Source: Candidatus Parvarchaeum sp. | Lineage (GTDB): Archaea > Nanobdellota > Nanobdellia > Parvarchaeales > Parvarchaeaceae | DNA: 34,911 bases | NCBI GenBank assembly: GCA_049965555.1 | Contig: JBMFWF010000010.1 | Span: 1-34,911 of the forward strand | Direction of reading: 5' to 3' | In this document: positions 3,948 to 34,911 of the stretch, in pieces | Position numbering within the stretch: position 1 is the first letter of the stretch | Layout of the letters: every line of letters begins with the position of its first letter | The notes under the pieces: generated by a model | Told to the model about the DNA's origin: nothing | What the model saw: only the letters and a program-made list of their open reading frames with translations | The model's database searches: none | Translations under genes and position numbers: made by a program

Positions 3948-4138
3948 CCGTGTCTGCGCATCGCAAAAAAGAAGAAAAAGAATACTAATACTTCGATTAC
4001 TATTATAAAAGAAATGGAAAGTAGCGAAGGGTTTTTTTGGAACCTGTTCGGAGCAACAAGAAAGACTATTATGAATGCGGTTACAAGTGAAGCAATTCCT
4101 GCAAAAATCGCATAAAAAATATCTTCTTTTTCTATCAT
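3944..4138 (-). CDS. Small two-TM membrane protein
   Basis: 64 aa with two hydrophobic helices. ATGA overlap with the helicase stop. Confidence 0.65.
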   Translation of the reverse strand: MIEKEDIFYAIFAGIASLVTAFIIVFLVAPNRFQKNPSLLSISFIIVIEVLVFFFFFFAMRRHG

Positions 4139-6855
4139 ACTTTTTTAGAAGGACTGTACTCTTCTTTCAACTTCTTGAATATTTCCTCATTTAAGCTGTC
4201 GGAATAATAGTACTTTTCAGTCGCTTTTTCAATTAATTTTTCCGGGTTTTCTTTATACTCCAAAAGCTGTAAAATATGCTTCTTGACAGTATCTATTTGC
4301 ATATCCTTTACCTTCTGGGTGTCCAATTCATATTCAAATTTTCCAGTGTTTATTTTTCCCGTTAAGTTTATGTATGCTATTGCAGTGTCTATATCCTTTT
4401 CATTGATCTTCTTTTCTATTGCAAAGAGTCTGCGGTAAAGAGCAAGCTGTCTTCTATGCTTAGACCCCTGGTCATCCGACCGATCTGTTTTGAAGTCTAT
4501 TATCAGGAATTTGTTCTTTTCCTTGTTAAAGAACACAGCATCAAGCTTCGCTGAAACCTTTAAATCAACTTTTATGTCCGGAAAAACTATTTCAAGAGGC
4601 ATTTCAATCGTTTTTTCTGCGTCCACTTCTTCTGCATTGTATTTTCTTTTTATTTCCTCCATAATGCTTATTATGTTCTGAAGGATTTTTTTCTGAGTCT
4701 CATTCAATTCCTCTTCTTTTAATGTATGTTTGAAGTAATCCTCGGCTATTTTGTGCGCGTTTAAACCGAATTTTGTGCTCTCTGTTACTTCACTTATTCC
4801 CAAAACCTTTGTTTTTATGAAATTTAAGGGATCTGACATCACATCAAGCAGCGAAAATGAAATGCTTTTGAGCTGGCTGAAATAGCTGTTTATCCGTTTT
4901 ACAAGCCATTTATCACTTTCTTCAAGTAAAGCCTTCGCTGCATCGTATTCCTTATTTACAAAAAGAGAGTATGCTTCAGCGTATTTTTTCTTGAAAGGAG
5001 CAGGCTCATCTTCCATTTCTGCAATGCTCTTTTCAATGAAACCTTCTATGTAGTAATCCTCGGAAATAGAGGGAGGAGTTACAACAAAAAGGTTTTCCTT
5101 TGCCCTTGTAAACGCAACAAAGTCTATTCTTATGCTTTCCTCGGCCAATTCTTCCTTGACATCCACTTCTTTTGTCTGTTTGATTATGGAGTTGGTTACT
5201 AAGTCAATAAAGCTCGTTTTATTGTTTTGTTTCTTAGGAACATAAACAACGTTGTCGAATTCTAAACCCTTTGCCTTATGAACGGTCGTAAGTATGAGTT
5301 TTTCCTGCTGGTCATTTGATTCATAGCTGTCCTCCGCCGTGTAAAGGTATACCAGCATATCCGAAAGGCTAGGCAGTTCATTGCTGTCCATATACTGGTT
5401 TATGTTTTCAAGCGTAGCAGCTGCACTTATGTAATAGTCATTATCCAATGCCACAGATATCGGCAGTATCGTTTCATTGAAAAGCTTGTTTATGTTGAAT
5501 ATATTCAGCTCTGCAGCGGCCTTTCTATCGAAAAATGGTTTTGCAAGCTTCTTTATCTCATCCATGCTTATCTCCTTTTTTCTATATCTTTCCTCTATTT
5601 CGAATGCCTTTTTAAGAGAAATCCCGGAAAAAGGGGTGAACAATGCTTTTAAAATGTCTTTTTCATCCGAATTGAATATGCCTTTCAAATAATCAATTAT
5701 TGAATTCTTTGCCCTAGTCGATACGGAAGCGCTTGCAGTTGTTGCGTATTTTACGTTCTTAGCGTCTAAAATACGGGAAATGCTTACTATCTGGTCATTG
5801 GTCCTTGTTATTATCGCCGCATTTTTCCCCTGCGAAACAAGGTCCATAGCAAGCTTTACAGCTATATCATCAACGTTGTTGCCTATCAACTGTTTTACGC
5901 TGCCGCCTTGCCCTTTATTGCTTTTAAAGGTTGACAATTCATCTTCATAGCTTTTATCCTTCGTTTTGCTTAAAAAATACTGCTTAGAATACTCGAGGAT
6001 TTCTCTGTAACTTCGGTAATTCAAACCTTTTGTCAGTTGCTCTAAGTTACTTAGTTTTTGAAATTCAATGAAGTTTTTTAGGCTACCTCCCTGGAAACCG
6101 AAGATGGATTGCTTTCTGTCTCCTACAAGAAACAGGTAATCCCCTAAAAGCCTAGCTATCTCTGCTTCTACGTCGTTTAAATCCTGTAGTTCATCCACTA
6201 ATACATACTTATAATGTTTTTTTAACGGATCATATCCAAGCAAAAATCTCTTCAAAAGATCATTGTAATCTATTTTAGTTTCTCCCTTTTCTCTTTCATA
6301 ATCCTTAAAAGCCGTTACAAAATAATCAAGAAAGGCGAGGATTTCTTCCACGCTTACGCTGCTCATATTCTCTAGAAAGGATTTGTTTATCAGCTCTTCT
6401 TTGGTCATTTTTATGTTTATTTCATCAGGAGTTATGCCAAAGCTTTTTATGTACCTTATTGAATTTTCTATCTTTGGAACCAATTCCTGTATTACATAAT
6501 CTCTGTCATAATTGAAAGCATTGTTCTTTTCAAAGCTCTTGAATATTGAAAATCTTATGAAGTTGTTGCTTACAAGCTCGTATTCTTTTCCCTGTTCTGA
6601 AAAATATGAATTGGATAGGCTGTGGAATGTAGAAATTGTTATTCCATTTATCCTTGAAACTTCCAAGTTATTCTCCTTTAATTTTTGGCTTATTTTTTCA
6701 AACATTTCGTCAACTGCCTTATTTGTAAAAGTTAAGCAAAGTATCTCTTTTTCGCTTACCCCATTTTTTATAAGTTCTATTACCCTCTCGGCTAATGAGG
6801 TTGTTTTCCCAGTACCTGGGTTAGCTTTTATAAGTATGTTTTTATTTAGATCCAT
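4135..6855 (-). CDS. UvrD/AddA-like SF1 helicase fused to C-terminal PD-(D/E)xK nuclease
   Basis: Helicase motifs ANPGTGKT, TFTNKA, TFHS, VDELQD, VGDRKQSIFGFQG, NYRS, TVHKAKGLEFD, VAFTRAK. Nuclease motifs KLDAV, IIDFKT, QLALY. Start ATG 6855 fits the TATA at 6876-6883. Confidence 0.9.
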   Translation of the reverse strand: MDLNKNILIKANPGTGKTTSLAERVIELIKNGVSEKEILCLTFTNKAVDEMFEKISQKLKENNLEVSRINGITISTFHSLSNSYFSEQGKEYELVSNNFIRFSIFKSFEKNNAFNYDRDYVIQELVPKIENSIRYIKSFGITPDEINIKMTKEELINKSFLENMSSVSVEEILAFLDYFVTAFKDYEREKGETKIDYNDLLKRFLLGYDPLKKHYKYVLVDELQDLNDVEAEIARLLGDYLFLVGDRKQSIFGFQGGSLKNFIEFQKLSNLEQLTKGLNYRSYREILEYSKQYFLSKTKDKSYEDELSTFKSNKGQGGSVKQLIGNNVDDIAVKLAMDLVSQGKNAAIITRTNDQIVSISRILDAKNVKYATTASASVSTRAKNSIIDYLKGIFNSDEKDILKALFTPFSGISLKKAFEIEERYRKKEISMDEIKKLAKPFFDRKAAAELNIFNINKLFNETILPISVALDNDYYISAAATLENINQYMDSNELPSLSDMLVYLYTAEDSYESNDQQEKLILTTVHKAKGLEFDNVVYVPKKQNNKTSFIDLVTNSIIKQTKEVDVKEELAEESIRIDFVAFTRAKENLFVVTPPSISEDYYIEGFIEKSIAEMEDEPAPFKKKYAEAYSLFVNKEYDAAKALLEESDKWLVKRINSYFSQLKSISFSLLDVMSDPLNFIKTKVLGISEVTESTKFGLNAHKIAEDYFKHTLKEEELNETQKKILQNIISIMEEIKRKYNAEEVDAEKTIEMPLEIVFPDIKVDLKVSAKLDAVFFNKEKNKFLIIDFKTDRSDDQGSKHRRQLALYRRLFAIEKKINEKDIDTAIAYINLTGKINTGKFEYELDTQKVKDMQIDTVKKHILQLLEYKENPEKLIEKATEKYYYSDSLNEEIFKKLKEEYSPSKKV

Positions 6856-6994
6856 TCTAATAATTGTGTACATTATTATAAAAGGTTTGTAATTTTTATT
6901 TTTTAGAAGCTAAAATTTTTGTCTGTAGAAAAATTTATAAATAAATTTGTATATATAATTATTATAGGGTATAAAATCTAAGGAGGTGGTTTGT

Positions 6995-8454: not shown

Positions 8455-9348
8455 ATGGAAACAAAGGAATTCAACAAAACAAAAAATAAACTTTCTGTCT
8501 TAGGCGTGGGTACTTGGGAGCTTAGCAACAACAAAGAAGAGAATGTGAAAGCCATAAGATATGCAATAGATAACGGGGTAAACTTCATAGACACTGCAGA
8601 AATGTACAATACGGAGGATGTAGTGGGAGAAGCAATAAAAGGATATGAAAGAGAAAAACTTTTTATTGCAAGTAAAGTTTGGCCGACACATTTCAAATAT
8701 GATGATGTAATAAAAGCATGCGAAGCAAGCTTAAAAAAGATAGGAACAGATTATTTGGACCTATATCAGCTGCATTGGCCTACTAAATCGATTCCTATAA
8801 AAGAGACAATGCAAGCGATGGAAAAGCTAGTAGAAGAAGGTAAAGTAAAGAACATAGGGATAAGCAATTTTTCGCTTGATGAGATGAAAGAGGCTCAATC
8901 AGTTATGTCAAAATACGAAATAGCTTCTAATCAGGTAGAATACAGCATAGTTACAAGAGACATAGAAAAGACGGGCGTATTCGATTATTGCATGGAAAAT
9001 CACATTGCAGTGATAGCGTATAGTCCTTTATCGCATGGAAAGATGTTCAATAACAAGGAATTGCTCGAAGATATAGGCAAAATAGCAAACAAATATGGAA
9101 AGACTCCTGCCCAGATTGCATTGAGCTGGCTTGTTCATAGAAGGAATACATTCCCGATACCTAAAGCTAGCAACATTGAACACATGAAAGAAGATATAGG
9201 AGCTGCAGATATAAAGCTGGATAAAGAGGACATAGATTTTCTTTCCGGATTGGAAAGCAAGTATTATACTGAACCGATAGCAAAACAGCATAAAAAGAAT
9301 GAAGACAAGGTAAACCAGTATAATTTTAAGGAAGAAAAAATAAACTAA
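8455..9348 (+). CDS. Aldo/keto reductase
   Basis: LGVGTW, IDTAEMY, SKVWP, LDLYQLHWP, IGISNF, NQVEY, AYSPL, IPKAS. Confidence 0.95.
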   Translation: METKEFNKTKNKLSVLGVGTWELSNNKEENVKAIRYAIDNGVNFIDTAEMYNTEDVVGEAIKGYEREKLFIASKVWPTHFKYDDVIKACEASLKKIGTDYLDLYQLHWPTKSIPIKETMQAMEKLVEEGKVKNIGISNFSLDEMKEAQSVMSKYEIASNQVEYSIVTRDIEKTGVFDYCMENHIAVIAYSPLSHGKMFNNKELLEDIGKIANKYGKTPAQIALSWLVHRRNTFPIPKASNIEHMKEDIGAADIKLDKEDIDFLSGLESKYYTEPIAKQHKKNEDKVNQYNFKEEKIN

Positions 9349-9382
9349 AGGCATTAAAACAAAGAAAATCATTTAATTTAAT

Positions 9383-9763
9383 ATGACGTGCAATACTGTA
9401 GACCTTTTAAATCTACTTGGGAAAAAGTGGGATGCAACTGTATTAGAAGAAATAAACAAAAATGAGGGCATAAGTTTCGATAGACTTCTTTTATTAAATC
9501 CAAAGATCTATCCTAAAACGCTGAACAAAGCCTTAAATGATCTAATCAAAAGGGAGCTTGTAACCAAGAAGATATTCTACAATAATAACATGAAAAGAAG
9601 CGAGTATAGCATAACTGAAACAGGCAAAGCGCTCATTTCCGCATTTGAATCTTTTAAAAGCATTAATTGTGGCAGTTCAGAAAACATCAAAGACTGCGGG
9701 GAATGCAAAAACGGGCCAAATAGCGGCAATAAAGTTGTTAATTACAATAGTATTAGTTTATAG
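9383..9763 (+). CDS. HxlR/DUF24 winged-helix regulator
   Basis: N-terminal Cys, LLGKKW, F..L, K.L...L..L, EYSITE.G. Extra C-terminal CxxC. Confidence 0.8.
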   Translation: MTCNTVDLLNLLGKKWDATVLEEINKNEGISFDRLLLLNPKIYPKTLNKALNDLIKRELVTKKIFYNNNMKRSEYSITETGKALISAFESFKSINCGSSENIKDCGECKNGPNSGNKVVNYNSISL

Positions 9764-9835
9764 TTTTGAATAATATAAAAACTTGTAACTTATTGTATAG
9801 TACCCCTTTATAAACGAAGAAATAGTATTATAATT

Positions 9836-10477
9836 ATGGGATTTGTTGATGAATTGGCACTAGAATTGTTCTTTGTTGCATTCATTGGCTTCCTAATGGA
9901 TTATACAGTGATTGCTATATATAGAGATTACAGAGCAAGATACATACGTAAATCAAATTCAAAAGTAAGCATAGAATCACATCTGCAGGGTTCAATATAC
10001 ATGTTTGCTGCTATAGCAGTATTCATTCTAGTGATGGGCTTTTATGGAGAAGTGACTTGGAACCTTCCCGGTGCATACGATTTATTATTCTACGATCCTT
10101 TCATAATGTTAGGCATACTTACACTGGGATTCGTATTATCAGTCAAATATAACCAGAAATTGCAGTACGTTGGACTTATTGCATTATTTATGGGTTTAGT
10201 GTTGATTGAATATGGGATTTCGGGATACAATTTAGGCTATACAAATTCTCCATTAGCACTACTTGGATTATATGCTACTTTTGGCGTTGCAGGGATATTT
10301 GCTTACCCGACTACATTGGTAATGGACAAATACAGGGAAAATGGCAGTAATAAGCCGCTTAACAAAAGTTGGGTAGTATACATAATACTGTTTTTGATTT
10401 TCTTAACATTAGGTTCATTGCTTGCAGCATACATTGGTGGAGTTGCGGTTCCTGCCCACCTCGCAGCTCCTCCTTAA
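9836..10477 (+). CDS. DUF981-like membrane protein
   Basis: FVD.L.L start, W.LPGAYDLLFYDP motif, about 6 TM helices, ends in AHL..PP. Confidence 0.7.
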   Translation: MGFVDELALELFFVAFIGFLMDYTVIAIYRDYRARYIRKSNSKVSIESHLQGSIYMFAAIAVFILVMGFYGEVTWNLPGAYDLLFYDPFIMLGILTLGFVLSVKYNQKLQYVGLIALFMGLVLIEYGISGYNLGYTNSPLALLGLYATFGVAGIFAYPTTLVMDKYRENGSNKPLNKSWVVYIILFLIFLTLGSLLAAYIGGVAVPAHLAAPP

Positions 10478-13362: not shown

Positions 13363-14415
13363 ATGGAAGGCTTAAGAGGCCAGAGTTCAATAAGCATTAT
13401 AAAAAAAAGAGACAGTATTCTTCTTGATTTAAGAAAGACAAAACAGGCCAAGATTTGGGAAGTTCCTGGCGGCGGTATAGAAGAGGGAGAAACTGCCGAA
13501 GAAGCAGTCAAAAGAGAGACAAAGGAAGAAGTAGATATTGATATAGACAATCCAACATGGCTTGGTGCAAAAAACCAAGCGATACACTGGATAAATGCAG
13601 GTATAGATCATTTTTTCTTATCAACTTCCTTTTCTGGAAAACCGACAGCAGTAGATATAAAGGATAAAGAAACTATCGGAGTAAGGTGGATAAAGATAAG
13701 CGACATAAAAAAGATGCTTAATATCAGCTGGAGAATAGTTGATGCGATGTATTTTCTTTCTCTTCGTTTTCCCGGCCTTAGGACAGAATACTACAAAATA
13801 AAAAATGCATTCGATAACCGAGCTGTTTATTCTTTTGAAAGATTTTCTTATTGGCCCGGAAAGCCGTCTTCTTTCTATAGGTACAAAAATTACCTTGATA
13901 ATAGGTTATTGGATAAGACTAAAGAGATTTTGGATAAAAGCAAACCGCCCATACTTCAGATAAATCCCGGCTTTGGAGAGATAACTAAACGATTAATAGA
14001 GAAATTCGGCGTAATCGATGTAGTAGAACTTTCTCCGGAAGCAAGATACTCTCTTGCAAAGAATTTTGGCACCAAAGTTCATTTTATAAGAGGGCTCCCG
14101 GAGGTTTTCCATTCCAGCAAAAAATATAATAGCGTGATAGCATTGAACTCCTTCATATACCAGCCTTCTTATATCTTATTTGGGCAAAGTATAGTGTCTT
14201 CAATGGATCTTGGGGGCAAGCTTCTCTTTTCGCCTTTGAGTGTGAAACGCCATATCCTACCTTCGTCGTATGTAGCCTACCGCCATTCTGTAAGCAATCT
14301 AGATTCTTACAGGCAATTCTTTATTGATTTTGGCCTTAAATTTGATGAATCCTACAGTTTTTATCTGGACAGGCTTAACAACATAAAAACAAACGTAATT
14401 GCATTTACAAAATAA
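13363..14415 (+). CDS. Nudix hydrolase fused to a class I SAM-methyltransferase-like domain
   Basis: Nudix box PGGGIEEGETAEEAVKRETKEE. C-half has ILQINPGFG, DVVELSPE, YNSVIA and LGGKLLF, in the order expected for Rossmann MTase motifs. Confidence 0.75.
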   Translation: MEGLRGQSSISIIKKRDSILLDLRKTKQAKIWEVPGGGIEEGETAEEAVKRETKEEVDIDIDNPTWLGAKNQAIHWINAGIDHFFLSTSFSGKPTAVDIKDKETIGVRWIKISDIKKMLNISWRIVDAMYFLSLRFPGLRTEYYKIKNAFDNRAVYSFERFSYWPGKPSSFYRYKNYLDNRLLDKTKEILDKSKPPILQINPGFGEITKRLIEKFGVIDVVELSPEARYSLAKNFGTKVHFIRGLPEVFHSSKKYNSVIALNSFIYQPSYILFGQSIVSSMDLGGKLLFSPLSVKRHILPSSYVAYRHSVSNLDSYRQFFIDFGLKFDESYSFYLDRLNNIKTNVIAFTK

Positions 14416-20350: not shown

Positions 20351-21136
20351 ATGGTGTATTACTCACAGATCAATAGAAAGGAGATTTTGATTGAGGAATT
20401 TGGAATTGAACAACTAAACAAAAGAGTCATAGTCTGTCCAATAGAATGGAACAGAGTATTGCCGGATGATTGGATTGAAAGATTAAGCAAAGAATACAGC
20501 ATTAAAACTTTTAAAAGTTGCGACAGGCATTCAAGTAAGATTGAAAGTAATTACAAAATAAAAGATACGCTGTTTCTCTTCATAAATCGAGGAGTAGCAG
20601 AAGCAACTGATAGATTTTATATACTGGCTAAAAACTCAAAAGTTAAAGAGATTATATTTCTGGGATTAGCAGCATCTTTAGTTGATTCTCTTGACGCAGG
20701 TGACATAAATATACCAAAATTTGTACTTCCTTGGGAAGATATAAGTTCAGACTATGTCAACGCCTTTGAATTTTTACCTGTTGGAGATAAAGCACTTATT
20801 GATAAACTCACCAAAATAACAAAAGAATACACCGGCAGTTATAATCTAAAAGTTAAAAACGACAACCATGCGACGGTAGAATTATTCTATGGCGAAACTG
20901 TTCAGCTTTTGGAATTTTTCAAGCAGATGAACGTTTCTACACTTGATATGGAGTTATCTGCTTTATACAGATTATCTGCTGCTTTTGGTAAGAAAGCTGC
21001 AGGTATATTAGAAGTAGGAGATAGGCCATTACATAAGGAAGAATTTTTTTCAGAGAAGCATAAAAACAAAAAGGAGCTAATGAACAAAAGCAAAGAGGTT
21101 GTTTTTAAAGTTATTGAATCGCTATTAAAAAACTAG
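20351..21136 (+). CDS. Nucleoside phosphorylase (PNP/UDP family 1)
   Basis: IIFLGLAASL....GDI.IP, T..LFY.ET, LDMELSALY, GD.P. Confidence 0.75.
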   Translation: MVYYSQINRKEILIEEFGIEQLNKRVIVCPIEWNRVLPDDWIERLSKEYSIKTFKSCDRHSSKIESNYKIKDTLFLFINRGVAEATDRFYILAKNSKVKEIIFLGLAASLVDSLDAGDINIPKFVLPWEDISSDYVNAFEFLPVGDKALIDKLTKITKEYTGSYNLKVKNDNHATVELFYGETVQLLEFFKQMNVSTLDMELSALYRLSAAFGKKAAGILEVGDRPLHKEEFFSEKHKNKKELMNKSKEVVFKVIESLLKN

Positions 21137-23360: not shown

Positions 23361-23909
23361 ATGAAGGAGATAGAGACTAAGATAATAAATATAGATGAGA
23401 AGGAAGTAAGAAAAAGGCTAATAAAAATCGGCGCCAAGAAAGTTGCCAAGTTGTTTTATAGAAGGTATGTATTCTCTTTGACTAATAAAAAGAAGATAGA
23501 TGAGTTTGTAAGAGTAAGAACAGACGGCAAAAAAACGACTATTACCTACAAATACAGAGAAGGAAATGGACTTAGAAACACAGAAGAGATAGAGACTGAA
23601 GTAGAAGATTTCAAAAAGGCCACAGATTTATTCAAAAAAGCGCTTAAGATAACGCCGATATATCAGGAAAATATCGTTGAAAAATGGCTTTACAAAGGAG
23701 TAGAAATAGACATAGCGTACTGGCCTTTGATAAAACCTATCCTAGAGATAGAAGGGAAAAGCATAAAAGATATTGTCAAAACGAAGGAAAAACTGAACAT
23801 AAAAGGGATGGATATAGGGAACAAGAACCTTGATTTCACATTTAGATATTATAATCAAGCTGGAAAAGACCGCGGAGACTTGTACTTTAAAAAACAAAAA
23901 TCAATATAA
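23361..23909 (+). CDS. CYTH / class IV adenylyl cyclase-like triphosphate tunnel enzyme
   Basis: EIETK start, RVR....TITYK, EEIET.V, LEIEG. Confidence 0.85.
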   Translation: MKEIETKIINIDEKEVRKRLIKIGAKKVAKLFYRRYVFSLTNKKKIDEFVRVRTDGKKTTITYKYREGNGLRNTEEIETEVEDFKKATDLFKKALKITPIYQENIVEKWLYKGVEIDIAYWPLIKPILEIEGKSIKDIVKTKEKLNIKGMDIGNKNLDFTFRYYNQAGKDRGDLYFKKQKSI

Positions 23910-26509: not shown

Positions 26510-27031
26510 TTAAAAATTTTTGATTTCTTCCACTATTTTTTCGCTTATCCTCTGGTTCTCATCGAATAAAAATGCCGCTTTTATCTTTTTGCCTTTTAGT
26601 ATATCCGGCAGCCAGTACCTGTCGTCTTCCCACATTTTATCAAGGGGTATTTTGTCTATGTCTACCCATAAAGGGGCCATTTCCTCTGTTTCATTCGGTG
26701 TGCCTTCCCATGAATAAGAGATAAAGACATAGGCTCTTTGATTCATGTTTTTATCAGCAGTGTTGCCCTTAAAATAAAACTCGATTACAGCAACTTTTTC
26801 AAAGTCTTTCAACTTGACTGTTATCTCTTCCCTCGTTTCTCTGATCAAAGCCTGCTCTACAGTCTCATTCTTTTCTAGCTTTCCGCCAACCCCGTTGATT
26901 TTCCCTTCTCCAAACCCTCTTTTTTTCATTGCCAGCAAAACTTTGCCGTTTTTCCTGTCTATTAAGTAACATAGTGTAACTTCCTTCAAGCCTTTGCTGT
27001 ATTTCTTAATGTATTCTTCTATTCCTTCCAT
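26510..27031 (-). CDS. Nudix hydrolase, MTH1-like 8-oxo-dGTP diphosphatase
   Basis: KKRGFGEGK.NG.GGK, RETREE, ETEEM.P.W, MWEDDRYWLP. Start 27031 fits the TATA at 27052-27059. Confidence 0.9.
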   Translation of the reverse strand: MEGIEEYIKKYSKGLKEVTLCYLIDRKNGKVLLAMKKRGFGEGKINGVGGKLEKNETVEQALIRETREEITVKLKDFEKVAVIEFYFKGNTADKNMNQRAYVFISYSWEGTPNETEEMAPLWVDIDKIPLDKMWEDDRYWLPDILKGKKIKAAFLFDENQRISEKIVEEIKNF

Positions 27032-27088
27032 AAAAACAATTGTGATGCACATTTATAAATTTGAGCTACTTATAAACACTGTATAGAT

Positions 27089-27502: not shown

Positions 27503-28216
27503 TCACTGGCTGTAGCGTTTCAAGTATTCCTGGTGTGCAATGTGTACAGCATCGCTTAAAACTGACTTGAGCCTGCTTATAACACCAGGATTATAGGCCT
27601 TGCTTATTTTCCGGTAGTATTTGTCATTTTTGTCGATGTAATCCAAAAGATTTGCCTCCTTCAGGTCTATTATATCCTTGTCGCACCTGCCATTCATCAA
27701 CCGGTTTCTCCAGGCATTGTACTTCAGCCTGCAGAGGTTCAATGGATCTACGAAGTAGATCTTTTGGCCGTTGTATTCCCTGTAAAGAGCATTTTTCCTG
27801 AGGTTTTCAAAGCCTTCATTTTTATCAAGCAGGCCTTCGCTGGAATAGAACTCCACCCTTATCTTTTTATTATCTAACTGCAGATAGGAAACATGTATAT
27901 CTGCATTGAACAGCGGCTTTGAGCCTGCATCCTTAATGTCTCTAAACCCTTTATCATAAAGCAAATCTTTCATTTCCTCTACATTTCCATCCACGACAAC
28001 ATCTATATCTTTGGGTTTATGAAAAGGATAGTAATTCTGCAATGCCGCGCCACCTATTAATATTGCGTTTTCCTTGCCGAAAATTGAGGAAAAAATTGAA
28101 TAGCTCTTAGCTATGTCTTCCTGACTTAGATATTCGCCCGATTCATAATTAACCGGCTCTATAAGATCTTCGTTAGATAGTTTTGAAAGTATCATTTGCA
28201 GAGTTCTTTTTATCAT
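27503..28216 (-). CDS. Pol-beta-fold nucleotidyltransferase (AbiEii/DUF6036-like)
   Basis: LIGGAAL, KDIDVV, L..LK....R.....KD..DL. Confidence 0.75.
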   Translation of the reverse strand: MIKRTLQMILSKLSNEDLIEPVNYESGEYLSQEDIAKSYSIFSSIFGKENAILIGGAALQNYYPFHKPKDIDVVVDGNVEEMKDLLYDKGFRDIKDAGSKPLFNADIHVSYLQLDNKKIRVEFYSSEGLLDKNEGFENLRKNALYREYNGQKIYFVDPLNLCRLKYNAWRNRLMNGRCDKDIIDLKEANLLDYIDKNDKYYRKISKAYNPGVISRLKSVLSDAVHIAHQEYLKRYSQ

Positions 28217-28310: not shown

Positions 28311-28712
28311 ATGTTTAATCAATTAGAGGACGTCTTGAAAAATACGAAAGAAATAAACGCCTATCTGATAGGAGGAGTGGCAGTAAATTCGTATATCCAA
28401 GGAGCAGGGTACACAATAATAAGGCCTTCCTCCACATCAAATGACATAGGCTTTGCAAGCGCTTACATAAAGATAAAAGACCTGCCTGCAATTGCCTATA
28501 AACTTGATGGAAAGATATCGCCGTTCATACAAAAATCAAAGATAAATTACAGCATGAACGGAATAAGCGGCAATGTAAATTATGACCCTGCTCCGGTATT
28601 AACACTAAATGAAAAGCTAGACGGCAAGGAAATACAGATATTCCCAGAATTTGTAGGGCCGATAAAAGTAGACAGCTATTATAAAGTAAATGATTTATTA
28701 GAGCATTCTTAA
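28311..28712 (+). pseudogene. Truncated/degenerate nucleotidyltransferase N-terminal part
   Basis: YLIGGVAV...R....NDIG, where the second Asp of DxD is Gly. The ORF ends before any C-terminal helical domain. Confidence 0.45.
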
Positions 28713-28756: not shown

Positions 28757-29281
28757 ATGAGGGCAATAGACTACGTCTGCATAGATGATCAAAGAATAAT
28801 AGAGGATTTAGAGTGGAATGCCGGAAGCTTTTTAACATGCCCTAGAACCAGGTATGGGCTGGAGTTAGTCGAAAACTCTAGCTTCTCTATCGAAGAGATA
28901 AGAAGGATATATGATGTCTGTTCCATGGAATCTGCCATCGTTTATGCAAAGGAATTTGCAAAAAAAGACAAAATCTATGAAAGGCTTTTGCATGATGAGG
29001 ATTTCAACTACTACAAGCTGGTTAGAACATTTGACTATTATAACTTGCTTAAAACACTTTGGCCGGAACAGGCTGCCAAATTCATAATAAATGAACTGCC
29101 AACTATTAAATACCTTAAAAACAAGGGCTATGACATTAAAATGAAGAGATATGTAGAATTTATCACTAGAAATGTAAAATATGAAAAAATAAACGAGAAC
29201 ATAAAATTGATGAAAGAAAAGGCAGATTTATACAGGAAATACCCGGATATGTACTTAAATGAGAACAACTGTTTGGATTAA
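28757..29281 (+). CDS. Hypothetical protein (possibly the C-terminal remnant of the upstream gene)
   Basis: 174-aa helical ORF 44 nt downstream of the previous stop. No family recognised. Confidence 0.5.
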   Translation: MRAIDYVCIDDQRIIEDLEWNAGSFLTCPRTRYGLELVENSSFSIEEIRRIYDVCSMESAIVYAKEFAKKDKIYERLLHDEDFNYYKLVRTFDYYNLLKTLWPEQAAKFIINELPTIKYLKNKGYDIKMKRYVEFITRNVKYEKINENIKLMKEKADLYRKYPDMYLNENNCLD

Positions 29282-29391: not shown

Positions 29392-29405
29392 AAGCTTATA
29401 AGCTT
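29392..29405 (+). promoter_or_regulatory. Putative promoter/operator of the five-gene operon
   Basis: Perfect 14-bp palindrome AAGCTTATAAGCTT containing a TATA-like TTATAA. SD-like GAGGGG at 29461-29466. Confidence 0.4.
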
Positions 29406-29478
29406 ATTCCCCCAATACTATTTTATATTATTCCTAGTTACTAAGCATAAACTTAGCAAAGAGGGGTTTTAGATCAAA

Positions 29479-29925
29479 ATGAAAACTTATAAACCTGGCC
29501 TCCTGAATCAGTTAACTGAAAAGGCAAGAAAAGAAGGTATAGAAAGATTTGTTGTAGGTGCTGTAATAGCTATCAATGGAAAAGTACTAATATTAAGACG
29601 AACCAAAGAAGATTTTATGGGAGGAATATATGAACTTCCAAGTGGTAAAGTAGAACAGGAGGAAACCCTAGAACAAGCACTTTACAGAGAAATTAAAGAA
29701 GAAACTGGCCTCAATATCAAGGAGATATTGTCTTACATAAAATCATTTGATTATGAATCTGCTAGTGGTAAAAAAACAAGACAATTTAATTTTTTAGTTG
29801 TAACTAAAGAAGGTGATATAAAAATCTCCGAAGAACATGATGATTATAAGCTTATAGGAAAAAACGAAGTTAACTCATACAACATAACAGATAATGTAAA
29901 AGAAGTAATATTGAATGCGGTATGA
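29479..29925 (+). CDS. Nudix hydrolase (candidate Pur7-like)
   Basis: ELPSGKVEQEETLEQALYREIKEETGL, SEEHD. ATGA overlap with the next gene. Confidence 0.9.
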   Translation: MKTYKPGLLNQLTEKARKEGIERFVVGAVIAINGKVLILRRTKEDFMGGIYELPSGKVEQEETLEQALYREIKEETGLNIKEILSYIKSFDYESASGKKTRQFNFLVVTKEGDIKISEEHDDYKLIGKNEVNSYNITDNVKEVILNAV

Positions 29926-30599
29926 AAGGTTTATTCATAAATTTTGAAGGATTAGATGGAAGCGGGAAAAGTTCAATAATCTCAAATTTAGAATCAATAC
30001 TTCTGTCTAAAGGTTACAAAGTTATTAAATTTCCTGAATTCTCTGATTCTATTTTCGGGGATGAACTTAAAAATAGACTGAAGTCCGATAAGTTTTTACG
30101 TGACACAAAGGATTTTCCAACAAGTATAACACAAAGTTTGTTAGTTATGACGGATCTTGCTTACATTTTTGAATACCATATAAGAGATTACCTTGAAAAT
30201 AATCATATAGTACTAAAAGATAGGTATATTGATACGATTATTTCATCTCAGCTCCCATTTCTACTCAGAGACTACCCTAACATTGGTTCGGAGCGCTTGT
30301 ATAATTTTTTGGATTCGATTTCAAGTATAATTCCAAAGCCGGATATAACTTTCTACGTATACACTGATGATAAAATAAGAAAAGAAAGAATAAGAAATCG
30401 ATACAGGGATGAATTTGAGAAGAATTCAAATAAAATTTCAAAGGAAGATGAAGAAATATTCAAAATGCGTGAAGAGGTGTACAATAAAATAATAAATAAC
30501 AACAAAAACATCTATATAATAAACAACAATGGAACATTAGATAAAGCAGTATCTCAAGTACTTGAGAAAGTCGAAGGGATATATGAAAGAAAAACTTAG
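29922..30599 (+). CDS. tmk: Thymidylate-kinase-family nucleoside monophosphate kinase
   Basis: FEGLDGSGKSS P-loop, VLKDRY, KPDITFY, lid R..RI..R. The usual REP motif reads PEF, so it is divergent. Confidence 0.8.
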   Translation: MKGLFINFEGLDGSGKSSIISNLESILLSKGYKVIKFPEFSDSIFGDELKNRLKSDKFLRDTKDFPTSITQSLLVMTDLAYIFEYHIRDYLENNHIVLKDRYIDTIISSQLPFLLRDYPNIGSERLYNFLDSISSIIPKPDITFYVYTDDKIRKERIRNRYRDEFEKNSNKISKEDEEIFKMREEVYNKIINNNKNIYIINNNGTLDKAVSQVLEKVEGIYERKT

Positions 30600-31074
30600 T
30601 GACATTCTTGATAAAGAAAAATTAGATTACAGCTACCTGGTCGTAAAACCAGACATATACCACAAATCTGAGGAGATATCTAAGTATTTAATTTCAAAAG
30701 ATTACAGAATACTTGAAGAGATAAGAATACAGAAACTTGATAGAACCGACGTTTCGCTTTTGTATGCAAACATGATAAACAGTGACAAATTTGAAGCTTT
30801 AGTAGAATACTTAACCTCCGGCCCAATTACAATATACAAAGTAAGTCACAAAAATTATGATACAATTTCCAAGTTAAAAAGTCTAAAAGGAAACATGGAC
30901 CCAGAAAAAGCAGATAAAGATACACTAAGATATATATTCGCAGATAGAAAGATATGGGATGGCATATACCTGGATGGTATCCATACTACAGATTCTAAAG
31001 ATGAAATTGAAGATTTAAAGAGAATTATATCAAAATACAATAAAGCCTACGACTTAAAAACAAGAGGCCCTTAA
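30583..31074 (+). CDS. ndk: Nucleoside diphosphate kinase, divergent
   Basis: VVKPD, F..LVEYLTSGP, G..DPE.A...TLR, and DGIHTTDS in place of N..HGSDS. Overlaps tmk by 17 nt. Confidence 0.85.
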   Translation: MKEKLSDILDKEKLDYSYLVVKPDIYHKSEEISKYLISKDYRILEEIRIQKLDRTDVSLLYANMINSDKFEALVEYLTSGPITIYKVSHKNYDTISKLKSLKGNMDPEKADKDTLRYIFADRKIWDGIYLDGIHTTDSKDEIEDLKRIISKYNKAYDLKTRGP

Positions 31075-31075
31075 A

Positions 31076-32089
31076 TTGGAAAAGCTAAGATGTTGTATTA
31101 TTGGATTGGGACATCAAACTAATAGTGACCATATACCGGCAATAAAAAATTCTAGTAAAACTGTAATAACTGCGATTTGTGATATTGACGAAAAAAAGTT
31201 AAAAGAGGCACAAAAGTCCCTTGGAGTAAAAGGTTACAAAAATTACAAAGAAATGATAGACAATGAAAAGCCTGATTTCATCTTGGTTGCTGTTCCACAC
31301 AATCAATACCTAGAGATACTAACATACGCAGCAAGCAAACATGTTAATGTATTGAAAGAAAAACCTCTTGCATTAAATCTTAAAGAAGCAATAGAGATAA
31401 GAGACCTTGCAAGAAAGAATAATATACAAGTCATGGTTGCACTTCAAAGGCGTTTTGATCCAATATATTCTTCTTTTTATAAAATGAAGGAAAAGGTTGG
31501 AAAAATATTTTTTGTTGAAGGCAAATATCATTTTCTAGTCAATGACCTAGCGCAGGGGTGGAGAGCGCATAAACTTGAGGCAGGTGGCGGTGCTATAATA
31601 GATCTGGGTTATCACATGGTAGACCTTATTATATGGTACTTTGGGGTTCCAGACCTAATTCATGCAGAATTTTCATCTCGTGCACAGGAAAATGCTTCGT
31701 ATGATGTTGAGGACACTGCAGATATACTATTTAGATTTGAACATCCAGAGATTATAGGAAATCTTTTCCTTTCAAGGCATTATGCACCAAAAGATGAAAG
31801 TATAACCGCAATAGGAACTGAAGGGACGGTTATACTCAAGAGAGACAATATAGTTAGACTTAATAATAAAGGAGAGGTAGTAGAAAGTTTAGATAGAAAG
31901 CAAACCTGGACAATGGCATTGAAAGAACAAATAGATTATTTTTGCGATGTAATAGAAGGAAAAAAGAAAAATATAAACCCTCCGGATTATAATATAAACC
32001 ATATGGCTTTTATAGAGGCATGCTATCTTTCTAAAAGAGAAGGAAAATTTGTGAGGGTGAACGAATTGATTTCCAAATATGAAAAGTAA
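31076..32089 (+). CDS. Gfo/Idh/MocA NAD-dependent oxidoreductase (candidate Pur10-like)
   Basis: IIGLG, VPH..Y, VLKEKPLA, QRRF.P, WR.....GGG.IIDLGYH.VD, VED.A. TTG start 1 nt after the ndk stop. Confidence 0.9.
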   Translation: MEKLRCCIIGLGHQTNSDHIPAIKNSSKTVITAICDIDEKKLKEAQKSLGVKGYKNYKEMIDNEKPDFILVAVPHNQYLEILTYAASKHVNVLKEKPLALNLKEAIEIRDLARKNNIQVMVALQRRFDPIYSSFYKMKEKVGKIFFVEGKYHFLVNDLAQGWRAHKLEAGGGAIIDLGYHMVDLIIWYFGVPDLIHAEFSSRAQENASYDVEDTADILFRFEHPEIIGNLFLSRHYAPKDESITAIGTEGTVILKRDNIVRLNNKGEVVESLDRKQTWTMALKEQIDYFCDVIEGKKKNINPPDYNINHMAFIEACYLSKREGKFVRVNELISKYEK

Positions 32090-33338
32090 ACTTGCAATTT
32101 TTGGAGGAAGCAAAACAATTAATGTAAAAGGCCCACAATATACCTGGCCGATAATAAATAAAGAAATGGAGATAGCCGTTAAAAAACAGCTTTATAAAGA
32201 CATATCAATATACGACCGTTCTGGTATAATAAAAGAAGTTGAGGATGAACTTGCAAAGTATTATGGAAGAAAACATGCTTTATTAGTAAACTCCGGAACA
32301 ATGGCAATATATTCAATGTTCTTCTCAATTAACTTAAAGCAAGGAGATGAAGTAATCTTCCCCAATTATAACTTCTTCGCATCGGTACTGCCTGTGCTAT
32401 TTACGGGTGCAAGCCCAGTCCTTTGCGACTCTAACCCTATTGATGGTAATATAGACCCAGAAAAGATAGAGGCTCTCATAACAGATAAAACCCGCGCGAT
32501 ATCTGTTACTCATATGTGGGGAATGCCGTGTGATATGGATAAGATAATGAGAATTGCCAAAAAATATGCTATAGAAGTTTTAGAGGATTTTTCGCATGCA
32601 CATGGTGCAGAGTTCAGAAACAAGAAAATAGGTTCTTTTGGAGCGGCATCTGCAGCTAGTCTACAAGGCCAGAAAATTATAACCGGTGGAGAAGGGGGAG
32701 TATTACTTACAGATGATGATGAAATTTATTATAAAGCATTACTACTTGGACATTATAATAAAAGATCAGTTCAAGAAATACCTAAAGAAAACAGACTTGC
32801 AAAATTTGCAGTCACAGGGATGGGTTTAAAACTAAGAATTCACCCATTAGCTGCAGCAATAATAAAACAACAGATGAAGCACGTTAACGATTGGCTAAAA
32901 ATAAAGCGGCAAATCGCTGAAAAGATGACCCGTGAACTTAAGGATGTAAAAGGCATACTTTCTCCTGAAGTCCCTTCTTACAAAAAACCGGCTTGGTATG
33001 CTTATATAATAAGATATAATAAAGATGAACTTGAAGATGTGCCGATAGAAACCTTCTACAATGCCCTTTTAGCAGAAGGAGCTTCTGAAGCAGACATACC
33101 GCACTCAACAGGGATACTTAATCAATATCCAATCTTCCAGAATCCAAAGGAACTATTCAATTATTATAAAGGACCTAGGTACAAATTAGGAGATTTCCCC
33201 GTATCTGAAAAGTTCTATAGAAGTATAATAAAACTTCCGGTATGGGCGGAAAAGAAAGACATGAAATTTGCTAAACTTTATCCTGCTGCAATTAAAAAAG
33301 TAGTAGATAACATAGATTACCTGAAAAAAAAGGTTTAA
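32079..33338 (+). CDS. DegT/DnrJ/EryC1/StrS PLP aminotransferase (candidate Pur4-like)
   Basis: LAIFGG, NSGT.A, HMWG.PCDM, EDFSHAHGA, SLQGQKIITGGEGG (PLP lysine). Overlaps the previous gene by 11 nt. Confidence 0.93.
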   Translation: MKSKLAIFGGSKTINVKGPQYTWPIINKEMEIAVKKQLYKDISIYDRSGIIKEVEDELAKYYGRKHALLVNSGTMAIYSMFFSINLKQGDEVIFPNYNFFASVLPVLFTGASPVLCDSNPIDGNIDPEKIEALITDKTRAISVTHMWGMPCDMDKIMRIAKKYAIEVLEDFSHAHGAEFRNKKIGSFGAASAASLQGQKIITGGEGGVLLTDDDEIYYKALLLGHYNKRSVQEIPKENRLAKFAVTGMGLKLRIHPLAAAIIKQQMKHVNDWLKIKRQIAEKMTRELKDVKGILSPEVPSYKKPAWYAYIIRYNKDELEDVPIETFYNALLAEGASEADIPHSTGILNQYPIFQNPKELFNYYKGPRYKLGDFPVSEKFYRSIIKLPVWAEKKDMKFAKLYPAAIKKVVDNIDYLKKKV

Positions 33339-33544: not shown

Positions 33545-34141
33545 TCAATTTTTTGGCTGTAAAAAATTATTTACCTTAATTCTTAAACTTTTATCCAGCT
33601 TGTCGAGATATCTTTGCAATTTTTCCTTGTCTATCCTTTTTTTCATTTCTTCTAAAACATCCTTTGGAATTGCTGCCTTGAAATAAACAAAGTCTATCAA
33701 AGTCTTTTCCAAGTCGGAAACAGGCAGAAAATTATTGCCCACACGTTTTGCTTCATATCCAAAGAACATCTTCCTTTGTATGTGTCTTATAAGTATATTT
33801 CTGCCAAGCACACTCCTTATGCCGGTCCTGACCTTTCTAGTCGTTATCACAACAGGATTAGTTTGCTGATTCCACAGGCCGTGCAAGGACAAAGCTTCCT
33901 GTAGACCATAATAGAAAGGCTCAAATATGAATCCAATGGTGTCTAGGTTATCGCTGAATGAGTAATAACCTCTTTTCAGTCTTTTTATCTCTCCTTTCTT
34001 TTCCAATTTATGAAGCGTAAGCCTTGCATAGTCCTTGCTCGCTCCTTTTTGCGTCAAAAATAGTTCTGCATCTTTAGCAGAAAAGTAATCCCTGTCCTTG
34101 AAATGCTCTAGGAATTCCTTCCGGTATTTTATCGCGCCCAT
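33545..34141 (-). CDS. abiEi: AbiEi-like type IV antitoxin / transcriptional regulator
   Basis: N-terminal wHTH (L.KKG.IKRLKRG.Y), PFYYGL..ALSLHGL..Q, SDLEKTLID. Confidence 0.85.
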   Translation of the reverse strand: MGAIKYRKEFLEHFKDRDYFSAKDAELFLTQKGASKDYARLTLHKLEKKGEIKRLKRGYYSFSDNLDTIGFIFEPFYYGLQEALSLHGLWNQQTNPVVITTRKVRTGIRSVLGRNILIRHIQRKMFFGYEAKRVGNNFLPVSDLEKTLIDFVYFKAAIPKDVLEEMKKRIDKEKLQRYLDKLDKSLRIKVNNFLQPKN

Positions 34142-34767
34142 ACTTTTAATTCCTCTATCATATCATAGAAAGTGGGGATTTTGCCCTCGTAGACTATTGT
34201 TTTAAGATCATTCTCATCTAGAGGTTTCTTTATTTTTGATAGGCAATCTTTTACTATTTTCTTTGTGTCTTTGTCAGTGACGATTCTAGAAAGAAAATAA
34301 ACATCATATATGTCCCTTATCCTGCGTCTATCATTATATGCTTCTATTTTCTCAAGTATCAATTCCTCCGGTTTCAATGTTAATACGTCAATTGAGCTGC
34401 CATTAGCCTTTTGGTATACCTTTAACGTTCCTTTAATATTCTTCCTTGTTATCTCCAGACTCATTTTTGTTGTATCATTAGATATTTGAGAGAACAACGT
34501 ATTTTTCGTCTGTCTAAATTTTAATAAAATCAAACCTCTCTTCTTTAACTCTACTTCTAATTTGTCTCTAAAATCTTCTTTATAATAAGAATAAAGATCT
34601 ATATCCTCAGAAAATCTTTTACCATTATAGCATCGCCATATAGCAGTCCCACCGTGTATAACTGCATTTTCCAATAACGAGTACACTACTTCTACGACTT
34701 CATCCTGCAATTGGGCCAATTCTTTCTGCTGTTCCCTTCTTAACTTATAAATTATTGGAAGTTCCAT
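34129..34767 (-). CDS. abiEii: AbiEii-family nucleotidyltransferase toxin
   Basis: HGGTAI, RFSEDID, EK..A...R...RDIYD. SD-like AGGTTGA before ATG 34767. Confidence 0.9.
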   Translation of the reverse strand: MELPIIYKLRREQQKELAQLQDEVVEVVYSLLENAVIHGGTAIWRCYNGKRFSEDIDLYSYYKEDFRDKLEVELKKRGLILLKFRQTKNTLFSQISNDTTKMSLEITRKNIKGTLKVYQKANGSSIDVLTLKPEELILEKIEAYNDRRRIRDIYDVYFLSRIVTDKDTKKIVKDCLSKIKKPLDENDLKTIVYEGKIPTFYDMIEELKVWAR

Positions 34768-34911
34768 ATTCAACCTTAGTTATACATATATATAATTATG
34801 GTTATCTATAAATAGCTTTCGTAGATTCAGACAAGCTTATTTCAAATTTATTATTTGTAATTTCAGGCCTTCAAATGTAAATTTAGTACATTTATATATA
34901 TACTAAAGTAT

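Follow-up and report, generated by a model that had tools for sequence, protein, structure and literature searches.

An accessory nucleoside diphosphate kinase with aspartate at a conserved asparagine position in a predicted nucleotide-modifying operon of Candidatus Parvarchaeum

Introduction

Why would an archaeon encode, within an operon predicted to modify nucleotides, a second nucleoside diphosphate kinase (NDK) in which one of the most invariant residues of this textbook enzyme has been replaced? The question is raised by a gene at positions 30583 to 31074 of a 34,911-nucleotide stretch of DNA from Candidatus Parvarchaeum sp. (assembly GCA_049965555.1, contig JBMFWF010000010.1, positions 1 to 34,911, forward strand), which we analysed as a whole and call the window; the genome it belongs to comprises 783,591 bases in 28 contigs, with a completeness of 92%. 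The residue is the Asn located three positions before the catalytic His (N115 in the human enzyme), which reads Asp in this protein. The gene lies among others encoding a Nudix hydrolase, a thymidylate-kinase-family (TMK-like) kinase, a Gfo/Idh/MocA oxidoreductase (GFO) and a DegT aminotransferase (DegT), and the combination of GFO, DegT and Nudix genes is referred to below as the cassette. An initial annotation of this DNA had noticed the substitution and proposed that an acidic residue would suit a protonated 3'-amine on the sugar. Here the observation is confirmed and extended, and the interpretation is partly supported.

During phosphate transfer by NDK, the 3'-hydroxyl of the nucleotide also hydrogen-bonds the oxygen bridging the beta and gamma phosphates, and N115 mutants are altered in their handling of azidothymidine nucleotides. 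In the literature that we searched there was no description of an Asp-bearing NDK and nothing relevant on N115/N119 mutants. In human NDPK-B in complex with guanosine diphosphate (GDP), the ribose hydroxyls are hydrogen-bonded by Lys12 and Asn115, Thr94 contacts the beta-phosphate, and both His118 and Arg88 are turned towards the diphosphate (PMC10853775). The 3'-modified diphosphates d4U-DP and ddU-DP are described as very poor NDK substrates (PMC5890512), so a dedicated enzyme for such nucleotides makes sense.

Results

Asp131 lies in the column of the canonical Asn

The gene and the codons of interest are the following:

30583..31074, + strand: divergent accessory NDK, 163 amino acids (Pfam NDK PF00334, 59.5 bits, cut-off 27)
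30973..30975, + strand: GAT codon of Asp131, in the column of the canonical Asn (human N115), three residues before the His
30982..30984, + strand: CAT codon of His134, equivalent of the catalytic (phospho-)histidine
31015..31017, + strand: TTA codon of Leu145, in the column of human E129

As judged from its predicted structure, the product is an NDK-fold protein. The AlphaFold2 model, for which 87 aligned NDKs served as input, has a mean predicted local distance difference test score of 92.2 and a predicted template modelling (TM) score of 0.85, and its top 50 Foldseek matches are NDKs only (E ~1e-11, TM 0.62-0.82). Its scores fall below the cut-offs of all the NCBIfam equivalog models for NDK (48.6 against 155 for NF001908, and 27.8-31.4 against 202-255 for the remaining four).

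Where canonical NDKs have the motif N-x-x-H-G-S-D-S, the window NDK reads Y-L-D-G-I-H-T-T-D-S. The placement of D131 on the column of the canonical Asn was obtained with phmmer against PDB 6ay1 ('ldgiHttds' opposite 'danavHgsds'), in MAFFT alignments A1, A2 and A6, and in the hmmsearch domain alignment. The codon reading and these several independent alignments agree, and the altered motif described in the initial annotation is therefore borne out. The annotation had also listed the KPD lysine, the TLR arginine and the His as retained, and we could assign them to K22, R116 (equivalent to Arg105) and H134; Y61, the equivalent of Tyr52, is retained as well.

Compared with housekeeping NDKs (human NDPK-B/1NUE, E. 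coli Ndk and the window genome's own), the protein belongs to the same Pfam family and ferredoxin-like NDK fold and has in common with them the catalytic His, the P-loop-free KPD lysine and the equivalents of Tyr52 and Arg105. Its active site differs by more than Asn115 to Asp, since we found further changes beyond those noted earlier: Glu129 to Leu, Thr94 to Met (Met105), Arg88 to Lys (Lys99), the Gly-Ser pair at G119 and S120 to Thr-Thr, and a 5-residue insert (RKIWD) ahead of the motif, all read from the alignment of 87 NDKs. E129 is the Glu that normally pairs with the catalytic His; of the 87 single-domain NDKs, 76 have E in its column, 5 have D and 2 have L. The two also differ in setting, housekeeping NDKs being encoded alone and the window NDK within a nucleotide-modifying operon. 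The Mimivirus NDK (PDB 2b8p/3b6b series) is among the best structural matches in Foldseek; its nucleotide preference has been reshaped by changes around the Kpn loop, and the window NDK has a longer segment before the motif and a change in the 3'-OH ligand itself.

Asp at this column is rare and absent from the housekeeping NDKs

In the set of 87 single-domain NDKs, which was made up of the window NDK, the relatives that an exhaustive HMMER search gave for it and the second NDK of the window genome, the column three residues before the His contains Asn in 85 and Asp in 2, namely the window NDK and a relative, P0002. A wider census took in 300 NDK domains from 165 proteins, 248 of them with the catalytic His; these carry N (241), D (5), S (1) or E (1). 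The Asp domains are those of the window NDK, P0002, P0273 (from locus L083, see below), P0014 and P0137. The last two lie inside long multidomain proteins, lack Lys12 and are acidic at the E129 position. That position is non-acidic in all three of the window NDK, P0002 and P0273, versus 28 of the 241 Asn-bearing domains. The background for Asp is about 1%, a figure from a census sample biased to relatives of the window NDK.

The second NDK of the window genome (G000:C1:43497-43889, 107.6 bits) has the motif I-N-L-V-H-A-S-D-S and the normal Glu. One concern raised at the outset was that Asp might be common in housekeeping NDKs of DPANN archaea. It is not: Asn was found in six out of six housekeeping NDKs checked in cassette-bearing genomes of DPANN archaea and bacteria of the Candidate Phyla Radiation (CPR), these being the window genome, G001, G402, G404, G405 and G406. 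The window NDK is an accessory paralogue and not the housekeeping enzyme.

Its only close relative among 1.84 billion cluster representatives is P0002, a protein of 160 amino acids with 66% identity that sits on a contig of 2,713 bases; the next matches are generic NDKs about 30% identical. Altogether there were 222 matches at E<=1e-3, 12 at E<=1e-10 and a single one at E<=1e-30. The ten-residue motif YLDGIHTTDS is identical in P0002, and the Leu, Met and Lys substitutions are also common to both proteins. Identity of the motif at ten out of ten positions, given 66% overall, speaks for the altered site being under purifying selection. A word-index search with the window NDK found P0002 alone and no syntenic NDK homologue, and scans of metagenome_contigs and genome_contigs with an alignment of the window NDK and P0002 returned no relative. 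The nearest Asn-bearing relatives, P0010, P0075 and P0070, have the same insert before the motif. These three form an odd NDK-like group of 156-165 amino acids which lacks Arg88 and the His-pairing Glu and reads H-S-P or H-R-T from the catalytic His onward. Atlas NDK clusters of 160-165 amino acids are mostly bacterial.

A second Asp-bearing NDK adjoins the same cassette in L083

Counting 80 genome loci, L083-L085, L181-L183 and the window, we had 87 cassette loci in which to look for neighbouring NDK genes. L083, a metagenomic contig of 1.15 Mb, has neighbouring genes of bacterial type, namely those for a Gre-like factor, a member of the poly(A)/CCA-polymerase family and RecJ. Its NDK, P0273 (139 amino acids, Pfam 88 bits), ends 3 nt before a GFO-DegT-TMK array and has the motif A-L-K-D-T-V-H-G-S, with Asp three residues before the His. 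P0273 is only 15-18% identical to the window NDK and P0002 in alignment A6, with short local BLASTP matches of 26-28%, and its 12 nearest relatives (26-37% by BLASTP) all have Asn, in the form x-N-T/V/L-V/I-H-G/A-S/T. The catalytic His, the Lys, the Tyr and the Arg105 equivalent are kept in P0273, as they are in P0002 and the window NDK.

The other locus is L004, from an Aenigmarchaeota metagenome-assembled genome, in which an NDK domain fused to a C-terminal region of ~230 amino acids without Pfam family (8767-9948) is encoded directly upstream of GFO-DegT-Nudix-HD. This genome also has a separate housekeeping NDK (150.8 bits). A ribonucleotide reductase gene is found 1.4 kb upstream, on the opposite strand. 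Identification of the C-terminal half as a RIO-like kinase (Atlas rank 24, score 0.91) was unsupported, and phmmer gave no recurring partner.

In order to place the Asp-bearing proteins, we relied on two maximum-likelihood (ML) trees. A quick tree put the window NDK and P0002 beside the Asn-bearing P0010/P0075 clade and P0273 among bacterial NDKs, which amounts to two changes. A careful tree, from which the two trait columns were removed, also gave two origins, and the Asp rows were joined in 0 of 200 bootstrap trees. Relative to the free search, a tree constrained to one Asp clade was 13 log-likelihood units better in the quick analysis and 17.9 worse in the careful one; the Asp rows are all on long branches. 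These sequence comparisons lean towards two Asp lineages recruited independently, without proving it. On both views Asp goes with the cassette: two origins mean convergence, and one means long retention across the archaeal-bacterial divide.

The NDK gene is the third of a five-gene operon

Five genes on the + strand overlap or abut one another, as derived from the open reading frame (ORF) list and Pfam. Together with the NDK gene given above, the features are:

29405..29478, + strand: putative operon leader from sequence reading, TATA-like 'attttatatta' ~58 nt 5' of the first ATG
29479..29925, + strand: Nudix hydrolase, MutT-like, 148 amino acids (Pfam NUDIX 61.7 bits; PADLOC candidate system PDC-S07 77.9 bits)
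29922..30599, + strand: thymidylate-kinase-family nucleoside monophosphate (NMP) kinase, 225 amino acids (Pfam Thymidylate_kin 70.3 bits)
31076..32089, + strand: Gfo/Idh/MocA oxidoreductase dependent on nicotinamide adenine dinucleotide, 337 amino acids (Pfam GFO_IDH_MocA 80.9 bits, plus C-terminal domains)
32079..33338, + strand: DegT/DnrJ/EryC1 pyridoxal-phosphate aminotransferase, 419 amino acids (Pfam 249 bits)
33545..34773, - strand: AbiEi/AbiEii toxin-antitoxin pair (Pfam and PADLOC), directly downstream, context outside the operon

A GAGGGG Shine-Dalgarno-like site in the putative leader lies ahead of the Nudix gene, the start of the TMK-like gene overlaps the Nudix stop by 4 nt, the NDK gene overlaps the TMK-like gene by 17 nt with GAAGGGA preceding its ATG, and the DegT gene overlaps the GFO gene by 11 nt. 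The TMK-like protein is under the NCBIfam equivalog cut-off for deoxythymidine monophosphate (dTMP) kinase (74.5 versus 83.25). With PADLOC 2.0 it matches PDC-M51B (36.3 bits) and, weakly, VakA (31.1 bits), the latter being a viperin-associated kinase; the NDK, GFO and DegT proteins gave no PADLOC match. Pfam searches of the operon proteins revealed no Pur3-type monophosphatase, its place being taken by kinases, and the ORF list and Pfam revealed no sugar-1-phosphate nucleotidyltransferase, glycosyltransferase or N-acetyltransferase in the operon. The GC content of the operon (31-36%) is similar to that of the remaining window, and Rfam and tRNA scans of the window had no match.

The surroundings are those of an accessory or defence island, with the AbiE pair downstream and small unassigned ORFs upstream: 27503-28216 (-), 28311-28712 (+) and 28757-29281 (+), one of them with a weak DUF7277 match. 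Elsewhere in the window, an ORF on the - strand (4135-6873) encodes a UvrD-type helicase of 911 amino acids with a C-terminal PD-(D/E)XK nuclease domain, which matches the PADLOC models for GajB-like and DRT-associated helicases. The 35-kb window contains three separate Nudix genes (13363-14415, 26510-27052 and 29479-29925), the first fused to a C-terminal region of ~220 amino acids without assigned family, as well as a PNP_UDP_1 phosphorylase-family gene at 20351-21136.

The cassette is found in archaea, CPR bacteria and actinomycetes

When one genome per GTDB species was scanned, 363 relatives of the oxidoreductase emerged, and the counts that follow were made on the best 80 loci. A DegT gene stands beside GFO in 79 of them, and GFO, DegT and a homologous Nudix gene occur within 6 kb in 77, nearly always in the order GFO-DegT-Nudix; in the window the order differs, the Nudix gene coming first. 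The three exceptions to the trio are L007 and L038, both cut by contig ends, and L040. Fifteen of the 80 loci have a TMK-family kinase in addition to the trio. The window type of TMK is kept from archaea and CPR to actinomycetes (Salinispora, Amycolatopsis) in alignment A5, and the P-loop of the cassette kinases, E-G-x-D-x-x-G-K, is invariant, its Asp being present in 11 of 11. A metagenome scan by TMK alignment followed a generic P-loop pattern, and 77 of its 80 loci were ordinary dTMP kinases without cassette.

At E<=1e-10 we counted 212 homologues of the oxidoreductase; those listed are 37-53% identical and come from DPANN, CPR and actinomycetes. Between archaea, CPR bacteria and actinomycetes the cassette proteins keep 40-53% identity, which suggests horizontal spread. 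The distribution is patchy, with the cassette in 4 of 401 sampled genomes of the window phylum, in none of four genomes of the same genus (G019, G143, G220, G391) and in 4 of 401 genomes sampled from a CPR phylum; the two phylum samples gave three new cassette loci, none with an NDK. No relative of the oxidoreductase was found in viral_contigs. Among the PDB neighbours of the oxidoreductase, C3-specific sugar dehydrogenases are numerous (DgpA, glucuronide-3-dehydrogenase, WbpB). The best PDB relative of the aminotransferase is QdtB (E 1.3e-46), a sugar C3 aminotransferase, and perosamine synthase and WbpE are also among its best. Homologues 40-45% identical in Streptomyces, Kitasatospora and Nocardia carry annotations that do not name Pur proteins. 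A search for a Pur3-like phosphatase in the actinomycete cassettes was little informative, as the ORF picks were crude in this GC-rich DNA: 19 of 23 had no Pfam match and the remaining four were HTH, HATPase_c_2 and one RIO1. In the literature searched, we found no paper linking aminonucleoside cassettes to DPANN or CPR organisms.

Further partners of the cassette are NMP kinases, HD-domain proteins and Gre-like factors. A gene with a GreA/GreB domain directly adjoins it in 10 loci, all of CPR-type bacteria, and in L040 and L083 the protein is a long form of 304-352 amino acids:

L010:8978-9535, Gre-domain gene
L012:12769-13227, Gre-domain gene
L014:3573-4040, Gre-domain gene
L018:13438-13899, Gre-domain gene
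L027:9538-10002, Gre-domain gene
L035:12747-13214, Gre-domain gene
L040:13643-14557, Gre-domain gene
L042:5534-5989, Gre-domain gene
L063:13498-13959, Gre-domain gene
L083:8669-9727, Gre-domain gene

Such a neighbour might serve the cassette as its own transcript-cleavage factor, freeing RNA chains that a 3'-amino terminator has blocked. The Nudix-less cassettes L083 and L040 have in common a related protein of 176-179 amino acids (L083:4783-5322 and L040:13057-13587, 49% identical), whose CYTH match is sub-threshold (E 0.0047) and which may be a triphosphatase in place of Nudix. The window also has a CYTH-domain ORF, at 23361-23909 and 5.5 kb upstream of the operon, with no detectable kinship to these proteins. 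In L040, AbiEii, PIN and HTH genes lie beside the cassette, so that AbiE modules flank it both there and in the window.

A second flavour of the cassette, in 7 loci, contains three extra genes, encoding a protein of ~365 amino acids that has no Pfam match even with E relaxed to 5, a TMK-family kinase of another type and an additional Nudix enzyme:

L005:2685-4905, three-gene insert
L006:7343-9546, three-gene insert
L007:3214-5333, three-gene insert
L008:12246-14487, three-gene insert
L011:10998-12720, three-gene insert
L013:7819-10008, three-gene insert
L181:2479-4890, three-gene insert

Discussion

The closest known counterparts of the cassette come from antibiotic biosynthesis. Photorhabdus adgB-E are homologous to pur10, pur4, pur7 and pur3 and make 3'-amino-3'-deoxyguanosine, which E. 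coli Gsk, Gmk and Ndk convert to a triphosphate that enters RNA and interrupts transcription (PMC9239236). In domain content, the Pur10/Pur4/Pur7(/Pur3) proteins of the puromycin pathway and AdgB-E place side by side the same three enzyme families as the cassette, and the order adgB-adgC-adgD is the GFO-DegT-Nudix order of nearly all trio loci. By analogy, the operon of the window probably makes 3'-amino nucleotides, an assignment that rests on domain content, gene neighbourhood and gene order. The oxidoreductase and the aminotransferase would take the 3'-OH of a nucleotide to a 3'-ketone and then to a 3'-amine, by chemistry of the Pur10/Pur4 type, and the Nudix enzyme would turn the toxic triphosphate into monophosphate, as in the role of Pur7.

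The operon departs from the Pur and Adg clusters in that it is devoid of a Pur3-type monophosphatase and of tailoring or export genes, and in that its TMK-family kinase and NDK would push the product towards the triphosphate and not the free nucleoside. These two kinases would carry a sugar-modified NMP to the diphosphate (NDP) and on to the triphosphate (NTP). With an NMP kinase and an NDK where the known clusters have a phosphatase, the natural reading, again by analogy, is that the modified nucleotide is kept at, or returned to, the triphosphate. A like logic is seen in prokaryotic viperins with nucleotide kinases, where a nucleotide-modifying enzyme stands beside kinases and a 3'-modified chain-terminating NTP is a plausible outcome; the window operon differs from them in having no radical S-adenosylmethionine enzyme, and its GFO, DegT and NDK are without PADLOC match. 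Members of the TMK family read the 3' position through the P-loop carboxylate. The invariance of the P-loop Asp in the cassette kinases is consistent with the 3'-amino idea, although not discriminating.

What could Asp131 do in such a pathway? In place of the hydrogen-bond donor Asn, it would offer a carboxylate to a 3'-ammonium group, which has no acceptor for the amide hydrogen of Asn and would be a neighbour to the ammonium of Lys12. With ordinary NDPs, the same carboxylate would add an unfavourable negative charge near the phosphates and so disfavour them. Asn to Asp would then be the smallest substitution one would expect if specificity moved from 3'-OH to 3'-NH3+, and would insulate the pathway from the housekeeping nucleotide pool and NDK. 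As for the Glu partner of the His, its loss could either offset the extra charge or point to a change in catalysis. We infer the 3'-amino product, the substrate of the NDK and the contact between Asp and ammonium. Our prediction from these comparisons is an accessory NDP kinase that is specialised yet functional and belongs to the translationally coupled five-gene operon, quite possible in our view but somewhat short of an even chance.

Several observations weigh against it. First, the Glu that would pair with the His is lost (Leu in the window NDK, Ser in P0273) and Thr94 is Met, so that NDK activity is not assured. Second, only three of the 87 loci (the window, L083 and L004) have an NDK next to the cassette, and that of L004 keeps both Asn and Glu (I-D-N-G-V-H-C-S-D-S). 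The expectation that N-to-D would co-occur with the aminotransferase cassette stood in the window and L083 and failed in L004, and the other 84 loci have no NDK at all. Third, there are two independent Asp events at most, and since the approximately unbiased test does not reject a single Asp clade (p 0.70 for the quick tree and 0.26 for the careful one), the recurrence may count as one event. Fourth, Nudix and kinases in one operon make a futile cycle unless regulated. Finally, there is the case of E. coli Ndk, an ordinary housekeeping NDK and presumably Asn-bearing. It turns 3'-amino-3'-deoxy-GDP into the triphosphate in vitro (PMC9239236), and Asp is therefore not required. The proposal of Asp as a switch suited to a 3'-amine thus kept two of its legs, as Asp is not a housekeeping trait of DPANN and recurs in L083, and was weakened by the Asn of L004 and the competence of the E. 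coli enzyme.

Part of this evidence would also fit a supply role, in which the kinases raise an ordinary salvaged NMP to the NTP used by the oxidoreductase, as with the nucleotide kinases found next to viperins, and Asn to Asp is a by-product of relaxed constraint in a fast-evolving paralogue. The lineage is indeed very divergent, with nothing above ~30% after P0002, and R88K, T94M and E129L show other active-site residues to be altered; moreover, the TMK-like protein has its weak VakA match (31 bits), the cassette NDK of L004 has Asn, and ordinary E. coli Ndk accepts 3'-amino-GDP (PMC9239236). A supply NDK would, however, be redundant with the housekeeping enzyme already present in the genome, and drift does not sit well with a motif identical at all ten positions in a 66% homologue, nor with the return of Asp, against a background of ~1%, in the dissimilar NDK that adjoins the same cassette in L083. 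We consider supply and drift unlikely.

If the altered active site is taken at face value, the NDK fold could have been turned to another use, such as a nucleotide-binding regulator, a sequestering protein or a phosphotransferase with another acceptor. The absence of an acidic residue at the E129 position from all three of the cassette-linked Asp set (Leu in the window NDK, Ser in P0273), compared with 28 of 241, would be in keeping with this, as would Met at T94, Lys at R88 and scores far under every NCBIfam NDK equivalog cut-off. Yet the fold is predicted confidently, the window NDK, P0002 and P0273 all keep the catalytic His, the Lys, the Tyr and the Arg105 equivalent, and the tight overlap with the NMP kinase gene is what would be expected for consecutive phosphorylation steps. 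We hold an altered or non-kinase role to be quite improbable.

Very unlikely, finally, is an operon for a nucleotide-activated 3-amino sugar (e.g. of the UDP-GlcNAc3N type) whose kinases feed NTP for sugar activation and whose Asp is unrelated to any amine: NCBI names the closest GFO homologue 'UDP-N-acetylglucosamine 3-dehydrogenase', the NCBIfam model for the archaeal UDP-GlcNAc 3-dehydrogenase gives 90.6 bits, but with a cut-off of 450, and QdtB, perosamine synthase and WbpE act on NDP-sugars, but the operon has no nucleotidyltransferase, glycosyltransferase or N-acetyltransferase, the constant partner of the cassette is a MutT-like Nudix (77 of 80) and the others are NMP kinases, HD-domain and Gre-like proteins, and the Asp of the NDK would be left unexplained.

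Returning to a specialised NDP kinase for 3'-amino nucleotides, the neighbourhoods (Gre-like genes, AbiE modules and PADLOC matches) fit a product directed at polymerases, as context and not as proof of a defence role. A broader proposal would be that NDKs recruited to the cassette twice acquired Asp for Asn and lost the His-pairing Glu, a change that defines a class selective for 3'-ammonio nucleotides; that the cassette plus the TMK-like kinase would form a self-contained factory of 3'-amino-NTP chain terminators in ultrasmall archaea and CPR, kept in check by the Nudix (or CYTH-like) hydrolase and, in bacteria, by the Gre-like factor; and that it would serve defence or an attack on hosts. 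Taken as a whole, we hold this chain of suppositions to be rather doubtful.

If the substitution is tied to a 3'-aminonucleotide operon, it would provide a testable rule, resting on one residue, for how an NDK reads the 3' position of the sugar. Since poor NDK turnover limits the activation of 3'-modified nucleoside drugs, such a rule would have practical weight. Phosphoramidate nucleic acids and chain-terminator reagents are made from 3'-amino-NTPs, for whose enzymatic synthesis an NDK that preferred 3'-amino substrates, with its TMK-like partner, would be a tool. For the organisms themselves, the aminonucleoside chemistry of Streptomyces and Photorhabdus antibiotics appears to be widespread in DPANN and CPR with the product kept phosphorylated, a form that hints at an intracellular chain-terminator strategy.

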